Part shown: one piece after another, positions 2,328 through 55,625 of the stretch | How the letters are laid out: each line of letters opens with the position of its first letter | Numbering within the stretch: the stretch's first letter is position 1 | Origin: Paraspadella gotoi | Taxonomy: Eukaryota; Animalia; Chaetognatha | Direction of reading: 5' to 3' | Assembly (NCBI GenBank): GCA_051294375.1 | Contig: CM119264.1 | Span: forward strand, 6,764,804-6,828,803 | Length of the DNA: 64,000 nt | Notes under the pieces: model-generated | The model's database searches: none | The model's input: only the letters and a program-made list of their open reading frames with translations | Told to the model about the DNA's origin: nothing | Program-made: the position numbers and the translations under genes

Positions 2328-4234
2328 AATCTTTCCCCCAAAATTGAATACTTCGACGATAGCTCAACCTTTTCAACCTCGGCTGGAGGAAATTGTCTTT
2401 TTCATCTTTGAAAGGCCACCGGAAAAAATACAACGACGCAAAACCACTTTTGTTAAAACTTTTCAAAATTTAATTAACAATTTAAAAAGTCTAAGATTAT
2501 CTCTCTCTCTCTTTCTCTCTCCTCTCTTCTCTCACTTTTCCACAATAGAGGGCACTGTGCCGAAATCCGAGCGAGCCACGGACAAGCTGGTCGCGTCGAA
2601 GGAAGGGGGGGAGGAAGGAGGAAGAGGAGGAGGAACGGGAGGAAGAGGAGGAGCGAGAGGAAGAGGAGGAGGAGATATTCTTTTCCTGGTAATTCATTGC
2701 GCAGATGGTAAATGAGAAAAGAAATGTCGGGTTCGGGCAAAAATTAAAAAAAGAGGCACATAAAGGCTCATTTCCGCTTCCAGGTTCACAGGTTTGTGAG
2801 GATGTGATGAGAGAGAGAGAGAAAGAGAGAGAGAGAAAGAGAGAGAGAGAAAGAGAGAGATATTTTTTTGTACCAGAGAAAAAGTGTACTACGTACTTTT
2901 TACTAGTTATAAAATGTTTTTGTGTCCCAACATCTCTGATAAGTCGTTAAGAGTACATTAAGAAATCCCAATTTAATTTTTACATCTTTTAAAAAGATAT
3001 CTGACAGTGAGATTACATAAATAAACAAAGACTATTACGAAAATTAACCGGATACACAGAGGATGCAAGCATTGCACGATAAATTTTTCTACTTGTACAT
3101 ACTTCATTCTGAAATATCGCAATAACTTTTGAATAAATCTGGCAGTTTGAATTAAATCAACAATTCAACATGAAACGACAGAGTTGACAAAAATAATTTA
3201 AATATCTTTTGTTTCATACTAAACGAAATATCGTCAGATGGCAGGAAGAATCGCATAAAAAATTAAACATAAGAACGTTAATTTGAAAATTACACATTTA
3301 ATGAAACAATTGATCCATAAAAAATTTAAAATTTTTTGGAGATGTTAGTGTTGTCTTCTGGAAATGTAGGATTCATATATTATAGAGCTTAGCAGCCTTG
3401 TATCCTGGACAATTCCTATTATGTGTTGTTGCTCCTTTTTTTTTTGCATTGTAGTTGAATGATTCAAGAGCATAACCCTGTGGGTAATTGTACTTTTGTT
3501 TGGATTAGATTACTGGATTTTAACGTAAACGTTGTCATTTCTCTAGTATAACCTTTGTCAAGATTACTCCTCAGAGCATATTTTTTTTAATGTTTAAAAA
3601 TGATTTAAAACACCTAAGCAATTCTCATCTTACCTGTTAATCACCACAAACTGATGCGAAAATTTTATATTTGATAAAACATTATTTACAAGTAATGCAC
3701 ATCAAGGTAACTAGCATAAAGCTTAATAATCGTAACCAAATATCTATCACAAAGACTGAGCTGAAGGTTTTTGTGATAGCATTCGTTACTGATTTGGGTT
3801 TTCTGAATAATGTTGTGAGATTTAAAATTGATAAGTGAAAAAAAAACTGGATTCGATGAAAAAAAAAATTCAGGCGCATGCTTGCAAATATACATTAGTA
3901 ATAGGAATAATTCGGGTATTTTTTTAACTGAAACTATATATATTGCTATCGCCGGTGTAGGGAAACATTTGTTTTTAAAACTACAACTAATTTTTTTTAT
4001 GGAATAGCTATGTTTTTTTTTGGTGTCGTTCGCCAAGAGTTTTGACCAGAAAATCGAAAACGAGATCAATGACTCGTTGGTAAATATGAATGACTTTTAT
4101 TTAAACATTTTACGTGAGCCCAAAAATGGCTGCGGCGAAAAAAGGAGTTTTCAATTAAATGCATATGAAATGTCTGTTCTAATGTATCCGATTTTAAAAA
4201 GGATGGAAAGTGGGGAAAGTGGGTAGTGGGGAAC

Positions 4235-24960: not shown

Positions 24961-42096
<17,136 letters not shown>

Positions 42097-46285: not shown

Positions 46286-49200
46286 ATGTTTTTCTTCATG
46301 TTTTTCGTCGTGTTTTCTTCGACGACGTTTTCTTCTTCGTCCTGTGCCAACGAAACGACGCCACCGTCCTCTCCTCCGGCGTCGCAGCTCAACGAATCGT
46401 CTTTCGGCGTCTTTTGGAACGCGCCGTCGGACTCCTGCGCCCGACGCGGCGTCAAATTAGACTTGGACAAATACGAAATCAAGCACAACCCGAACTTGGA
46501 ATTTTTGGGTAAAAATTTGGGGTTTTTTTTATTCGAAGTAAAATATCGGAAAATATATAGACAATAAAATATTGGCTTCTGGATCAAGAACTTGGTTAAT
46601 AGTTATTTTTGATTTTACCAATAAAGTCACCGCATCATGGCTTCCGAATTTGACATCATATTCGTCATTTCATCTTTCAAAATATCAAAATATTATGCCT
46701 CAAGGGAATCGTCAACTTCATATGATGTCACTCAAAATATTTAGCGAATCTAAGAAAAGAGAATCCAACAGAATTCCGTTTTTCTGAGCCAAAATGAAAT
46801 TTCACGATTATCATAAAAATTGCCTGACTGTCGGTCAGCTTTTTCGTTGTATTATTGTTGGCAGCAAAAAAAAAAAAAAACATTTTGAAACAGGTGTTAG
46901 TTCGTTAACCTTTTGTGAAAGAAAATAAACTTTAAATTCGAGGACCCGTTATATCCTTGTTTTACGCCGACTTCACAAACTTCGGGGCTTTCCCATATTT
47001 CGACTCTCGAGGAAAACCGGTTAACGGAGGAATACCTCAGCTCGCCAACCTTACCCTTCATTTACTGAGGGTAATTAATTCTTATAATTTTTTCATATTT
47101 GAAATTTAACATGTGACATATATTCAAATATAAAATGACTCCGCTTGTTTTTTCTCGTGAAACAGATACGAGATCACGTGACGTCCGCCTTGACGCCCGA
47201 TTTTTCCGGTTTAGCGATCATCGACTTTGAACAGTGGCGCCCGACCTTCGATCGTAATTGGGACAAACTCAAGATCTACAAAGACAAGTCCGTCGAATAT
47301 GTCAAACGACGATATCCTCAAAAGTCCGAGGAGCAAGCACTGGTAACGAAAAATTGTTTGTCTTTATTCTCATTTGCATATTGAAGTAATTTTTGTAACA
47401 AAATCTTAAAAGAATTACCTAAAGAAATTTGTTCCGGTAGAGACAAATTAGGCGCGATAAAAAGGAATTATTTAGATTGTTAATAAATTAATTTAATTAA
47501 ACTCTTGTTATGGCGTTAAAATTATTTATATATAATAAGCTTTGAATATTTGACAAAACGAAATGTCGTTTAAAAAGACAAAAGTAAAGTATAAAAAGGC
47601 GAAAAGAAGCTTTTTCATCACAAGAGGCGGTAAGCTCATCTAGGGAACCACTTAACGGTCGTTCTGGCCGAACCTTCGTTCCCGAGAAGGTCTGAGAATG
47701 GATCGTCAACCCTCTAGAAGGGGGCGCCTTTAAGGGGCGGTGAGAGCACCAGAAATACGGCCCTACCCGTTGCCAATGCGCATGACTCCGAGCTCCCTTG
47801 GAGCGAAGAGGACGCGGCAGTCGGGTCAGGTTGTGAAGCTCTCATGATCCGCGAACTGAAGCACAATTGGTGAGATCCTCGCCTGTGAGGAAATTCAATT
47901 CAGACTACTCTGCCACCTCTACCTTTTTATATGTTTTATAAGTCTTTTAGTCTAATTTGCATATTCCGGGAGGGGAACAAGATTAGTTTTTCTCTTTAAC
48001 TCAGCTTTAAAAAAGGAGAGAGTACGACTTAATTTATTCATACGACTCTCATATTGCACTCTCTTCTTTTAATCTCATTTACATATTGCAGTGAAAAACT
48101 AATTTACTTTTCACGGAAAAGTTGGGACATTTCTATTTAAATTCATAATTTGTCACCGGTTAATAAAAACTAAACAATAAAAATATTCCGATAGTTTGTC
48201 ATTAAAAAAATACTCACTAACTCAAAATATAAATTTCACGTAAATTAAAGAAAGGCTTAAGGAAACGGATCTCGATTACCCATCTGAAAGGAGCATTTAT
48301 AAACGATACGATCCGTCGATATTCGTTGTAGCCGCGAAGATCCAATTTCGGAATCACACAATAGCACACCGTTGCTACATATCATTCCGGAGAAATTCCC
48401 TGCATCTCTGGTAGAAAGTACTGACCGTAAAGGTGAAATTCCGGCGGCAACGTGCGTTCATTGGCCATGACCTCGTCAGAGGGAGCCGCGCAGCCCCGGA
48501 ATCATGAGAGCAAAGAAATTTGGATGCGACGCTACGGCGGCGTACTAGAACAGGGATTACTCTCGCGCTACTCACTTTTTACCTCATTTTTCGAATTTGT
48601 TTAATACGTGTCCTTGGTTTGTTTATTTTTACGTACTGTACTAGCTCTGATGCCATATTACGTTTATTTCCACGGAGTCGAGAATTACGGGTGTGATAAT
48701 TTGTACTTTGGCGGTTGTATAACGATAATACCAACGTCGTACATATTTTATTCGATTTTACTTTATTAGTAATAGTGTGATCCTTTTTTTACTCGGACGA
48801 ATATTCGGGCAAAGCGAAAATTTCGATATTTTCTCGAAAAATTGTTCTCTTTTGCAAATCCCCACGGTTTCGAGGTTTGACCCCATCTGAGCATTTGTCC
48901 TTTTCGAAATAAACGACTTTGGATTCGGCAGGGTCTCGAGAGATCTTGCAGGGAAACTAATAGTGGGGATGCAGGGTCCCCTCAAATAGTTATTTCGAAA
49001 GTTTTTAGTGACAATTTATTCTGGGAATCTCTGCAGGCTGCAATGATAGGAAATTTGCTTCGATCTTTGTAGAAAACCTAATCTAAATCTTTGCAGGTAA
49101 CCTTGTAGATAAGTTTTAATGGCAAATATCTCTAAATGGAATTAAACAGATATTTTGGCAAGGATCTCGGCAGGGTATCCACAGAGATCTCGGTGGGGAA

Positions 49201-49414
49201 ATCGTTAGAAACTCATCATCTGTCTCCCACCTCCCGATTCCGTTGAGAGGAGCGAAAAAGTTTCTCCTTCATCCCCAGGGACAAAAGACTCATCTTCATC
49301 GTCATTCTCAGAAACGATTCTCTCTCTCTCTCGTTTCTTTACGTCTCGCTCACCGTCTCTCCGTCTCTTTCTCACTATTCATTTCTTTCCTTTTTATTTT
49401 TCCTCCATCCCTCG

Positions 49415-49510
<96 letters not shown>

Positions 49511-50833
49511 CCCAGGCGTTGCGCGCCAAGAATGGACCGCCAGCGCCGCCCGGCTTCTCAAGCCACCCTAGAGACGGCGGCGGGGCTTCGACCCAACGCG
49601 CGATGGGGATTCTACAAATTCCCCGACTGTTACGACTACGACGCTCAGCGGACCGTTTGCGACGGATCTGTCGGTAAGTTACTGTCTTGGGAATACTGCG
49701 AGGGGAATACCGTTAGATCATAACTAAGTAATACTTAATAAAGTTAAAATTATCTTTCGCCGTCGATTAAGCTTCATTTAAATATCTTTCAAACTCCTGC
49801 AATCTACACAAAGTCCGCAAATACATATGTTGCCTTCGTCCCGTGAGTTTGAGAGATGAGATCACATGCTCGCAATGTATGTGTTTCTCTAACGTTGATT
49901 ACAAAAAACGAAGCTGTATCTTTTCAGCCCTCTCATTTGTCAATTTGCTTCTCATTTTGCTTTTCTATCATATCACCCTCGCTCGACAGTCTGGTACAAC
50001 GACCAACTGAGTTGGCTTTGGAACGCTAGTTCAGCCCTCTACCCGTCCGCCTACTTTGGCGCCAACTTCCCGCCGACCGCCTGGCAAAAGCGGAACTACG
50101 TTCGCGCCCACGTCAACGAAGCGGCGCGCGTTGGACGTCGCGGCGCCAGCTCGCTTCCGGTTTATCTCTACGTCAGGTCAGTAATTGGGTGAGAGTTCCT
50201 CCGTTCCTTTCCTCTCCTCCCTTCCTTTTTCATTTTCCTCCTTTTCTCCATTCCTTTCTTTCTTCCTCCTTCCCTCCCTTCCTCTTCACCATAACTCTTT
50301 CCTTTTCCTCCTTTTCCCCATTCCTTTCTCTCTTCCTCCCTTTCCTCCTTTCCTTTCCTCCCTTCTCCTCCCCATCTCCTTCCTCCAGATATTCCTATTC
50401 CCCCACCTCCTTCGCCTCCGCCTCCGACCTCGACGCCGCCGTCAGACTTTCGGCGGATCTCGGTGCCGCCGGCGTCATCCTTTGGGACGCCTCGGCGCCA
50501 TTCGGCGACGCCGCCTATTGCGGGCGCCTGAAGGCGGCGTTGGAGACGACGCTGGGGCCGCTGGTCAAGCGGGTCGTCGACGGAGCGAGGGAGTGTTCGA
50601 GGAAGGAGTGCGGGGGGAAAGGGAGGTGCGTGGTGGAGGGGGAGGTGGGGATGGAGGAGGAGGAGGAGGAGGAGGAGGAGGAGGAGGAAGAGATCGATGA
50701 AGAGTGTGGCAATGTGATGGAGGAGAATGTCACCCTGATGGAGAGTGCAGAAAGAGACAAAGTTTACGATCCGTCGACGAAGTGTCGTTGCTTTTTCGGG
50801 TGGACGGGAGATCGTTGTCAAGACCCAGCGTGA
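46286..50833 (+). CDS. Hyaluronidase-like glycoside hydrolase family 56 (~439 aa); exons 46286-46508, 46943-47070, 47166-47342, 49516-49673, 49990-50176, 50389-50833
   Basis: Family motifs in order: hydrophobic N-terminus, FGVFWNAPS, NGGIPQLANL, GLAIIDFEQWRP (catalytic DxE), RPNARWGFYKFPDCY, NDQLSWLWNASSALYPSAY, LGAAGVILW, and a C-terminal EGF-like domain (CSRKECGGKGRC...CRCFFGWTGDRC). GT-AG introns. Phases are consistent once two missing bases in exon 4 are restored. Confidence 0.95.
47556..47597 (+). promoter_or_regulatory. Candidate type 3 Pol III promoter of the RNase P RNA gene (PSE-like 47556-47572, TATA 47590-47597)
   Basis: TATAAAAA ~30 nt upstream of the RNA. AAACGAAATGTCGTTTA resembles the motif at the same offset upstream of the MRP gene. 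Confidence 0.55.
47623..47921 (+). ncRNA. RPPH1: Nuclear RNase P RNA
   Basis: CR-I GAGAAGGUCUGAG (47684-47696) pairs with CR-V AAUUCAGACUAC (~47898-47909) to form P4. P1 AGAGGcGGUA/UGCCaCCUCU, 5' AAGCUCAUC as in metazoan H1 RNA, P3 GGGAAC/GUUCCC, P10/11 UGAGAGC/GCUCUCA with CR-II CAGAAA and CR-III UGUGAA. About 300 nt. Confidence 0.95.
47924..47928 (+). terminator. Pol III oligo-T terminator of the RNase P RNA gene
   Basis: TTTTT directly after the 3' strand of P1. Confidence 0.7.
48263..48303 (+). promoter_or_regulatory. Candidate type 3 Pol III promoter of the RNase MRP RNA gene (PSE-like 48263-48278, TATA 48298-48303)
   Basis: TATAAA 27-30 nt upstream of the RNA; AAACGGATCTCGATTA starts 35 nt upstream of the TATA. 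Confidence 0.55.
48325..48575 (+). ncRNA. RMRP: RNase MRP RNA
   Basis: P1 GUAGC(C)GCGA/UCGCGCUAC; P2 AUCCAA/UUGGAU; P3 CGGAAU/AUUCCG. CR-I GAAAUUCCCUG (48392-48402) pairs with CR-V AACAGGGAUUAC (48549-48560) as P4. MRP-diagnostic GARAR pentaloop on P8 (GGUA-GAAAG-UACU, 48410-48422), P9 ACC-GUAAA-GGU, P10 AUUCCGG/CCGGAAU, P19 ACGC/GCGU. About 250 nt. Confidence 0.88.
48576..48580 (+). terminator. Pol III oligo-T terminator of the RNase MRP RNA gene
   Basis: TTTTT directly after the 3' strand of P1. Confidence 0.7.
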
Positions 50834-51473: not shown

Positions 51474-52242
51474 TCAGCAATGCTCTCTCATCGACGACGA
51501 CTATTTTGCCCCCAAAAAAATCCCGAATTAATTTTAGCGATGTTTGCCAAAGGGCTAACTGATGGCAGGGCGCAGGGAGTGGTCGGTCGATCTGTCATCA
51601 AACTCCGTCCATCGTGCATCCATGAAAAAATTTGATTCCACCAGAAAACATCGAACGCGATTCGATCGTCAGGAGCGTCAAAGTCGATAATTAAAATAAT
51701 AAATAAAAGGAAAAGAAACCTGAGGAATTCATCTTACAGCAGTCAAATCAAGGAAGAAAGATTAAAGAAAAGAAAGAAAGAAAGAAAGAAAGAAGGACCG
51801 AATGGATTGCTCTGAAATTCCAACAAATTCTCGCGTCAAAGCCTACGTGTCGCTTCTCTCCAGACCTCAGAATTCAGCCGGCATTAAAAAAGTAGCAACA
51901 TTCAGTATCATACGACGATTGACGAGATGAAAGACGACTGCTCTGGTACGTCGAGTGACGACGAGCTCGACCGCAGTGACAGTCCATAATACAGCCTCTC
52001 CGCCGCCTTCCCGGGGGCGGTGATAGAAAAAAATGGTATCGGAAACTATATAAACTTTCCTCTCCCCTACGGAACGGCGGAAATCGCAGCAATAAGAAAC
52101 CGATCCCGTATACTAATGGTTTCGTCAGATAGTTCAGAAACCATTCTATCTTTCGTGCTCTCTTGCCTACTCTTACTCTTCTTCTATGTCTCTCCTTCTC
52201 CCATCTTTCTCTCTCCTCTCTTCTCTCTCTCTCTTCTGCTCT

Positions 52243-52406: not shown

Positions 52407-55400
52407 CCTCTCTCTCTCTTCCCTCTTTTTTCTTTCTCTTCTCTCTCTCTTCTCTCTTTTCTCTTCTCTCTCTCTCTCTCTTCATGGGGGTTGGTCCGAT
52501 CGTCAAATACGAACAGAGGTTTCCGCGGCGGTATTACAACCCAATCATAGGTGCTTTCCCCACTCTGTGTTCCGTCCTCCCTCTCTTCTCTTAACCGCGC
52601 GCCCCCCGTCTCAAAGTCTCGGGTCCAGTCCCGCCTTGTTCGCTTTTAGGCTGTACTCATCCGAAAAAATGATCGAGCATCCCTCTTCTCCTTTCCTCTA
52701 TCCCTCGCCCCCCCCACGGTCGGCCTTGAGACTTTCCCCGTGGATCCCTCGACTCCGTAAATAATTGGGCGCATCGTCGTCGGGGACTCTCAAGCGCTGC
52801 GAATGACGTCTCGCAGAAGTACTGCTTCAGCAGGCTTCTTTTTCTCTCTCTTCTCTCTAAATGTTTTCTCCTTAGTTTTTCGCTTTTCACTCTTTGTACA
52901 ATATTTTCCTTCATGTAATCAAAGAATAACAAAAGTTATTATAGAGATGTATCAAGATGAATGGATAATTTTTATAATTGGTTGTACTAACGTTCTATAT
53001 TTAATAATTTGTAATTTAGTAATTTCGTTAGTTCGTCTCGTGTATTTGAGGCACAATATGGTTTGTGTGTTCTCTACAACGAATTTTCTCTCTATTTTTG
53101 GAACGGATCGTTCTGGCTTTGAGTTGCAAGCCTTCTTCAAATTGTTGACGGCTGAAGGAAGGCCTTGCAACTATAGCGAAACATTTCCGTTTTTTCTATG
53201 AAAAATAAAAAAAAATTTGTGTTGTAAAGACAAGGAAAACCAGTTTCTGCGCTTCAATATTTATAAATTGTGAGGCGTATATTAATATATATTACCATAC
53301 ATTCACAGCTGTATCCCAATGGTACTTGGTCGGTATTACATTGGTAGCTACTGGATATTGAGAATGTATAATTGTTGGGTCGGTAACGCATTGTCAAAGA
53401 TAAGTCTTTACCATTCTCTGATTACTCTATTCTTTGAAATCATTATACTTTTTATTAAATTTTTGGATTTGCTTTTTTTACTTATAAAATTAAGAATTCT
53501 TTTATTATCAAATATTTAGTAAAAATAGTTTTAATAATATGAATTATTTAAACTTTTAATTTTGTAGATAATAAGTGGATTAATGCAAAACTTAATATAA
53601 ACAATATTAAACAAAATATATAAAAAATATAAAAACATTGCTAATTAATTGATATTAAATTTTATTTGAAGTTGATGAGCGACGTATTGAATCATTAAGC
53701 CAGAACAAAATGTTGCTATTTATTTTCAGATAAATTATACACTTTAAATACAACTTAAAAAAAGTAATAGCAAATGAAACAAGGCGTAAGTTTACGTAAT
53801 TGTATTGTTATAAAGTAAGGAATTAACTGTGCAGTGAATGGTGAAAAGCTCTTGGAGATAAAATATGAGGTAGTTTTCTTACTTGTGCTCACTGCTCTAT
53901 AAAAAGCGAGAAAATATTTCAGAAAACCATTATTGAGTTTATCACAATATTAGATATAATAAATATATTGATCACAATAATATAAAATTTAGTAGCTTAA
54001 TTTAAAAATGAAACAAATATATCACTTACAGATTTTTTTTCAACACATTTTATGTAAGTTACACTTACATGGTTTTCCTTTATTCAATTTTGTTTAAAAT
54101 TTAGCTATCATATAAAATAGGTCCTACATCTATGTGCATAATTTCATTTAAAATGAATTAAAAGTTTTTCGATCTGAGTATAGAAGGCAGTAAGCTTTCT
54201 TAACAGACATTATGCGTCATATTGAACAAAACTTTTGTTTTACTTTTAGTCCTTTTTTCGAAGCGACCTCTCTAAACACTGTTGCAGCATTCCACAGACA
54301 AAAGACAGTGAAACTTGCACCAGATGTCAGACTGCTGCGAAGAGACTAGTAACCTGGATTAAGGGCTAAGCATAATTAAATTATTTAATGATTATAGGAA
54401 AAAATACCTTGAGTTATTTTTATCTTCATTAAATTACATTTTTTTAAACTTTTTAATATCGGGGGATCAATAAATATTTTCATGGAATGCCGGTATGCTC
54501 ATGAAAAAAAATAATTTTTTATGTTTACTTTTTTTATTCAAAAACAACCTGATTGACATAATTTGACGAAAAAAAAATGCAAAGCGTTCAAGCTTAGCAT
54601 TTTTTCCCTACTTTTGCAATATTTGCACATTTGTAGAAAAGTACTTTATACTCACGAAACTCTATAGTAAATCATTAATTTCTACAACTCCGAACACATT
54701 GTTAGAAAGTGTATTGATAAGGATCCGCGAATGAGGATCGAAGAGGGAGACATGCGCCGAAAGAGGATTTTTGTATGTTCACGAAGGAAGAGAATCCTCT
54801 TCCTTTTCGCCGGCAATAGTTACTTAAGCGATGTGATAACCCATCATGGTATACGGTGTTCACAATGCACGTCTCTCCGTCTGTGGAGAAGGTCTGGCTG
54901 TACTAAACTAGCGATCAATTTTACTTCAACAGTCGCTGGACTTGACACTGATCCCTCTCGCAGCTTCGCCAAGCGATCCATGCTGCCGCGATGCAGCTCA
55001 CTACGCGGACACGGGTTCGTCACTTTCTACGATCCATCTCTTCTTACACTCGGCATCTTNNNNNNNNNNNNNNNNNNNNNNNNNTCAGCAATGCTCTCTC
55101 ATCGACGACGACTATTTTGCCCCCAAAAAAAATCCCGAATTAATTTTAGCGATGTTTGGCCAAAGGGCTAACTGATGGCAGGGCGCAGGGAGTGGTCGGT
55201 CGATCTGTCATCAAACTCCGTCCATCGTGCATCCATGAACTAATTTGATTCCACAGAAACATCGAACGCGATTCGATCGTCAGCGTCAAAGTCGATAATA
55301 AAAATGATAATAAAAGGAAAGAAACCTGAAGGGAATTCATCTACAGCAGTCAAAATCAAGGAAGAGAAAGATAAAGAAAAGAAAAGAAAGAAAGAAAGAA

Positions 55401-55625
55401 AGAAAGACCGACAGATTCCTACTGAGTCCAACAAATTCGGTCAAGCGACGTCGCTTCTCTCGACGCCAGAATCCGGATTAAAAACAACATCAGTCAACGA
55501 CGACGACGACGATGAAGACGACGACGATGAGGACGACGAGAACGACGACGACGACAACAACAGCCTCCGCCGCCTCCGGGGGCGGGAAAAAAATGGATCG
55601 AATACATAAACTTTCCCTCTCCCCG
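51474..55625. repeat. Direct duplication of ~550 bp (51474-~52065 noisy copy; 55085-~55625 cleaner copy just after a 25-N gap)
   Basis: Both begin tcagcaatgctctctcatcgacgacgactattttgccccc. The first copy accumulates insertions towards its end. Confidence 0.9.
53102..53191. ncRNA. Pair of degenerate hammerhead-like motifs in inverted (divergent) orientation
   Basis: Plus strand: ACGG-CUGAAGGAAGGCcuugcaacuauaGC-GAAAC-AUUU-CCGU (53148-53190). 53102-53139 is an imperfect reverse complement of it. Confidence 0.45.

Follow-up and report, generated by a model that had tools for sequence, protein, structure and literature searches.

RNase P and RNase MRP RNA genes in tandem, with predicted Pol III signals, within one intron of a hyaluronidase gene

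RNase P, which cleaves pre-tRNA at the 5' end, and RNase MRP, which cleaves pre-rRNA, are related essential enzymes that share Pop/Rpp proteins and are each built around an RNA core. To our knowledge, the human genes for the two RNAs are unlinked. In the window, that is, the whole stretch of 64,000 nucleotides of DNA analyzed here, genes for both RNAs are found next to each other within a single intron of a hyaluronidase gene. This arrangement raises the question of whether the pair is genuine and, if so, whether the two RNAs are made from promoters of their own or from the transcript of the host gene.

Two RNA genes in the third intron of a hyaluronidase gene

The host gene and the two RNA genes comprise the following features.

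46286-46508, + strand: exon 1 of the GH56 hyaluronidase gene, with the ATG, a hydrophobic N-terminus and a WNAP motif (PF01630, E 1.3e-5; intron 1 is skipped in the X9 contig)
46943-47070, + strand: GH56 exon 2 (PF01630, E 2.9e-8; joints present in the X9 contig)
47166-47342, + strand: GH56 exon 3, with the IIDFEQWRP motif (PF01630, E 2.8e-16)
47343-49515, + strand: intron 3, 2173 nt, GT-AG, which holds both RNA genes and their predicted promoters and is missing from the spliced X9 contig
47624-47919, + strand: nuclear RNase P RNA gene, 296 nt (RF00009, putative CR-I to CR-V, P4 pairing)
48326-48572, + strand: RNase MRP RNA gene, 247 nt (RF00030, putative mCR-I and mCR-V, GARAR loop, P4)
49516-49673, + strand: GH56 exon 4, whose open frame lacks two bases (PF01630, X9 contig)
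49990-50176, + strand: GH56 exon 5 (PF01630, E 1.1e-13; joint present in the X9 contig)
50389-50833, + strand: GH56 exon 6, with a C-terminal EGF-like part, a poly-Glu run and the stop codon (PF01630, E 7.3e-8; weak PF23106)

A covariance-model search of the window, the check proposed in the initial annotation, placed both RNA genes above the gathering score. The P gene matches RF00009 over its full length (model positions 1-301 of 301) with 125.4 bits (gathering score 28); its P4 helix pairs 47690-47695 with 47900-47905, and the motifs at 47686, 47748, 47831, 47859 and 47896 are those that we take to be CR-I to CR-V. The MRP gene likewise matches RF00030 over its full length (1-266 of 266), with 71.9 bits (gathering score 50) and an E value of 2e-19 when a 2.3-kb stretch is searched with permissive filters or 5.6e-18 on the whole window, on which the default fast filters of Rfam miss the gene. 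In the MRP RNA, mCR-I and mCR-V are presumably located at 48389 and 48549, and P4 pairs 48394-48400 with 48553-48558, with one bulged U. The L8 GARAR is represented by GAAAG at 48414, in the P8 loop; mCR-I, mCR-V and GARAR in loop L8 are the features by which MRP RNA is recognized in the available part of PMC4287351. The fold of the MRP gene has a z score of -2.27, and the GC content of the P and MRP genes (0.56 and 0.52, respectively) compares with 0.24 and 0.30 in the stretches that precede them. All three substitutions that distinguish X4, a run from another study, inside the RNAs (47673, 47675 and 48449) affect positions that the Rfam alignments leave unpaired. In the X5 run, a 4-nt insertion is present after 47700, in the 5' strand of P7 of the P RNA.

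The host gene (46286-50833, + strand) consists of six exons separated by five introns, all GT-AG, of 434, 95, 2173, 316 and 212 nt. All six exon pieces match PF01630, in profile order and over positions 3-332 of the profile, and the IIDFEQWRP motif of exon 3 presumably contains the catalytic D-x-E of GH56. The initial annotation delimited intron 3 at 47343-49515 and described it as far longer than the others, in agreement with the 2173 nt measured here against 95-434 nt. A contig of 1101 nt from the X9 run, which we guess to be an RNA run, joins exons 1-5, the start of exon 6 being its loose end; it skips introns 1, 2 and 4 and goes on from 47343 to 49521 through five intervening letters, which indicates that intron 3 is spliced out, with both RNA genes inside it and in sense. 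X9 does not cover P or MRP, an absence that counts neither way.

In the window, exon 4 would need two more bases to have an open frame (site 49516-49561; the spliced model has 1318 nt), a defect that is absent from the initial annotation. Both X5 and X9 carry one extra base at one site, and the five letters of X9 against four in the window imply one more base at the start of exon 4. Given these extra bases, the frame gaps are probably assembly errors of the window and the host gene is probably intact; a pseudogene host was rejected.

An exhaustive search for relatives of the host protein gave 257 matches at E 0.001 or better. Among the best 150 of these 257, the nearest relatives, at 45-53% over about 400 aa, form one clade; the next-best matches among those 150 are at about 30-40%, and the named ones are from animals. 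In a tree of 33 hand-picked rows, including one insect, the host protein falls inside the nearest clade (support 100/100); the position of that clade beside nematodes (93/79) is weak, possibly reflects long branches and is not trusted. The organism is likely to be an invertebrate. A search with exon 3 for longer proteins found none, and no locus of the host gene was found in the prokaryote genome contigs. One member of the hyaluronidase clade (P0021, P0151) has a kringle domain at its C-terminus, together with an Asp-rich tail.

The two RNA genes are arranged head to tail, both in sense to the host, and are separated by 406 nt (47920-48325); the claim that full genes for P and MRP RNA lie about 400 bp apart in one sense-strand intron is thus borne out, both being full-length matches. 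One X1 contig spans 46295-49409 with a single difference from the window, X1 being possibly the window's own source. In X4, exon 3 and P are on one contig (47166-48227) and MRP is on another (48200-49409) that overlaps it, and in X5 a chain of overlapping contigs leads from P to MRP. An assembly chimera was ruled out on the strength of the spanning X1 contig and the overlapping X4 contigs. The initial annotation had asked for sequences that span both RNAs and the flanking exons: contigs do join exon 3, P and MRP, but no single DNA contig of the runs compared crosses the CT microsatellite that precedes exon 4, and the gene order across this microsatellite rests on the window and the spliced X9 contig.

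In X1 and X4, the depth over both RNAs equals that of a single local contig, which means that no other contig at least 88% alike matched at either RNA. These comparisons suggest that the P and MRP loci are single copies, within what such contigs, which cannot prove the absence of diverged copies, are able to reveal, and the two genes are likely to be the working copies of this organism. The P and MRP genes share a local match of only 16 nt, so neither is a recent copy of the other.

Predicted promoters and terminators

Within intron 3, each RNA gene is accompanied by a similar set of predicted signals.

47363-47387, + strand: distal element of the P gene, predicted DSE, at -261, with the octamer ATTTGCAT at 47372
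47556-47572, + strand: possible PSE of the P gene, with a weak likeness to 48263-48278
47590-47597, + strand: TATA box of the P gene, at -34 from the model start, with a 26-nt gap to the RNA
47924-47928, + strand: T5, predicted Pol III terminator of the P gene (sequence run)
47951-47966, + strand: second octamer-bearing copy, in the spacer, with ATTTGCAT at 47955 (sequence match)
48068-48092, + strand: distal element of the MRP gene, predicted DSE, at -258, with ATTTACAT at 48077
48263-48278, + strand: possible PSE of the MRP gene, weakly like 47556-47572
48298-48303, + strand: TATA box of the MRP gene, at -28, with a 22-nt gap to the RNA
48576-48580, + strand: T5, predicted Pol III terminator of the MRP gene (sequence run)

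The published description of Pol III-type genes in the available part of PMC4287351 places the TATA box 21-27 nt ahead of the RNA and includes a run of 4-5 T, and both genes have the TATA box at this spacing as well as the poly-T run at the 3' end, where T5 starts 3-4 nt after each RNA end. Neither RNA gene contains an internal run of four or more T, an A box or a B box. In the introns of the host, the background of such TATA and T5 placement is 0.020 and 0.047 of positions, and the joint chance for two genes is about 9e-7, with ranges that were chosen after the sites had been seen. Among other eukaryotic P loci, 13 of 33 have TATAWA at -32 to -39. The spacer between P and MRP contains six T4-T5 runs, including the T5 after P, which argues against read-through from P to MRP.

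The distal elements, which the initial annotation did not include, are identical at 22 of 25 nt between the P and MRP genes. A match of this quality was reached in none of 3000 shuffles in register and in 8 of 2000 at any position; when real segments of the window served as controls, with position ignored, 2 of 442 matched the P side equally well and none of 442 the MRP side. The vertebrate MRP promoter is described as consisting of TATA, PSE and an octamer-containing DSE (PMC1796607, available part), and by analogy we infer that the 25-nt element is a distal enhancer common to snRNA-type genes. Similar stretches of about 34 nt occur on at least six other X1 contigs, as well as on contigs of X4 and X5, where their flanks recur. 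Copies on other contigs are as expected of a promoter element common to snRNA-type genes; the element may also be a short dispersed repeat. These contig matches cover 47350-47396 and 48070-48103 and may mark other snRNA-type genes of the organism.

The PSE-like motif common to the two genes, which is located 34 and 35 nt before the TATA boxes of P and MRP, respectively, has no statistical significance in the shuffle test, its score being reached by 1838 of 2000 shuffles (161 of 2000 in register).

The distal element of P starts 20 nt after the splice donor, and 281 nt of intron 3 in all precede the P gene. The great length of this intron is largely due to its holding a compact two-gene cassette, in which little beyond promoters fits into the 281 nt ahead of P or into the spacer of 406 nt.

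Alternative modes of expression

Having a TATA box, a T5 run and a distal element of their own, the two genes are most likely Pol III genes rather than genes of the insect type that depend on Pol II transcription of the host. Judging from these predicted signals, it is quite probable that both RNA genes belong to the type-3 Pol III genes (the U6/7SK/H1 kind) and, although nested in a Pol II intron, work independently, each expressed from its own predicted promoter and terminator. The relocation of a Pol III cassette into an intron, one of the possibilities raised in the initial annotation, fits the TATA box, T5 and distal element found at both genes. The likeness to insect and crustacean P genes, which was drawn there as well, does not hold, given that those genes lack Pol III signals (PMC4287351, available part) and both genes here carry them. 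If the two genes are independent, Pol III would start about 25-30 nt after each TATA box and stop at each T5, yielding one RNA of about 300 nt and one of about 250 nt, their ends already mature, both of which would join the shared Pop/Rpp proteins. Pol II would transcribe both genes as part of the host pre-mRNA, and their copy in the intron would be discarded.

The sense orientation of both genes and the splicing of the host would also agree with a dual route, whereby the Pol III promoters work and some of the RNA is, in addition, trimmed from the excised host intron, as in Drosophila; there, intronic RPR is trimmed with Xrn2 and the exosome, nucleases that are described as conserved (PMC6797745, available part). 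However, the complete Pol III signals make a second route unnecessary and, judged by its identity as a hyaluronidase, the host is unlike the ubiquitous, highly expressed hosts suggested for insects in the available part of PMC4287351, and we regard the dual route as quite unlikely. The same sense-intronic position, shared with insects (PMC4287351, available part), could be taken to indicate full dependence on the host, with both RNAs coming from the Pol II transcript only and the TATA boxes and T runs being chance occurrences or relics. Such dependence appears very improbable: Pol III signals are found at both genes, with a joint chance of about 1e-6, a distal element is common to the two, and MRP has Pol III signals in 26 of 26 insects surveyed (PMC4287351, available part).

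The location of the two genes on the same strand, 406 nt apart, is what would be seen if Pol III made a single dicistronic transcript of P, spacer and MRP that is then cut; yet a T5 lies four bases after P, five more T4-T5 runs follow in the spacer, and MRP has a TATA box and a distal element of its own. This reading is barely credible and was rejected on account of the spacer T runs and these MRP signals. Another alternative is that one or both genes are redundant or in decay and that the functional copies are located elsewhere. The moderate MRP score (71.9 bits), the 4-nt insertion in the P gene of X5 and the inability of the contigs compared to prove the absence of diverged copies all speak in its favor. 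Against it, the conserved regions, the P4 pairing and the promoters are all intact, and no second contig at 88% likeness was found on either RNA in X1 and X4, so that decay or redundancy of these copies seems highly unlikely.

The reading of two independent Pol III genes can be extended to a combined proposal, namely that the cassette is a conserved, co-regulated unit across the whole animal lineage concerned and that, at the same time, the P gene is an intermediate of the Pol III-to-Pol II switch seen in insects, its promoter being still intact and both RNAs being able to mature from the excised intron as well. We consider this combination unlikely. Starting from a sense-intronic P gene with an intact promoter, the loss of that promoter could by itself give rise to the insect Pol II allele, and the locus is for this reason a natural test case. 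In addition, its predicted type-3 promoters form a nearly minimal pair, and its MRP gene is one that the default filters of Rfam miss. Should the pairing turn out to exist in one species only, it would be a curiosity; if kept across the lineage, it would point to selection on making the two RNAs in step, as they compete for shared proteins.

Precedents and P-MRP linkage in other genomes

The arrangement was initially presented as one not recognized as described, which overstates its novelty. In Auricularia, the nuclear P and MRP genes are located together with SRP and U14 in the rDNA IGS1, with no further copies in two genomes, and introns are a known site of P and MRP genes in Caenorhabditis and Drosophila (both PMC9849065, available part). 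What stands of the novelty claim is that no tandem of P and MRP in an animal was found in the literature, in the parts available, where supplementary coordinate tables could hold unremarked cases. The accessible portions of PMC2770079, PMC11067881, PMC5006418, PMC1796607, PMC2655684, PMC4180458 and PMC10085805 make no mention of P-MRP linkage, and those of PMC12390755 and PMC3342880 contain nothing relevant to it.

Auricularia resembles the present locus in that nuclear P and MRP genes are physically linked and seem to exist in no other copies, but it is a fungus, and the genes there are part of a repeated rDNA unit with SRP and U14 and are not in an intron (PMC9849065, available part). For Caenorhabditis and Drosophila, the same portion of that paper does not say that the intronic P or MRP genes are together, nor does it give their orientation or promoter type.

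The insect and crustacean P genes, like the P gene here, lie within an intron of a protein-coding gene and in sense to it (PMC4287351 and PMC6797745, available parts). They are described as sense-intronic genes devoid of the Pol III signals, that is, PSE, TATA and terminator (PMC4287351, available part); of the two hallmarks of this Pol II type, the sense-intronic position is found here and the absence of Pol III signals is not. Unlike them, the P gene here has a TATA box, a T5 and a distal octamer element, and its partner is MRP.

In Tribolium, one intron also contains two RNA genes, which are two copies of P (PMC4287351, available part). In the same survey, as far as its available part goes, animal P genes of the Pol III type are intergenic, except for that of the centipede Strigamia, which is antisense intronic. 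The latter gene resembles the P gene studied here in its type-3 Pol III signals and its location inside an intron, and differs from it in being antisense to the host; none of the P genes surveyed is reported in that part to be beside MRP (PMC4287351). Each element of the arrangement has a precedent, and for their combination in an animal none was found in the literature searched.

We also assessed the linkage of P and MRP in other eukaryotic P loci. Metagenome contigs scanned with a 16-nt CR-V motif gave at least 120 loci, and a CR-I-like motif was found in 61 of those listed. The scan covered 36 of these 61 and left out the 25 whose flanks did not exceed 300 nt; the addition of 2 of 59 genome-contig loci resulted in a 38-locus control. 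In this motif-biased set, P genes were found in all 38 loci and MRP beside P in none of the 38. Among the first 34 control loci, 26 are distinct, and at least 700 nt are available downstream in 17 and upstream in 22. The same search mode recovers the MRP gene of the window in 64 kb. The absence of MRP beside P in this control indicates that P-MRP adjacency is not the rule. The possibility that the pair is a relic of the original P/MRP duplication was discarded: the 38-locus control lends it no support, and P and MRP would have had to separate independently many times. The P/MRP pairing is probably a lineage-specific relocation.

Two records filed as bacterial contain nuclear-type P genes, L143 at 2993-3306 (159.9 bits) and L167 at 2993-3313 (80.1 bits), and are likely to be eukaryotic contigs; RF00030 was found in neither of the two.

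Elsewhere in the window, none of the 149 other ORFs scored above the curated Pfam cut-off. A match resembling the Type-P5 twister ribozyme is present at 25487-25563 (+ strand), with 30.7 bits against a gathering score of 37.6 (E 0.018). A stretch of roughly 280 nt is duplicated 3.6 kb apart, at 51474-51750 and 55085-55415; the second copy starts right after a 25-N gap, and the duplication is probably an assembly overlap. Repeats are also apparent in the ORF text, between about 30900 and about 35850 and between about 29300 and about 37600.
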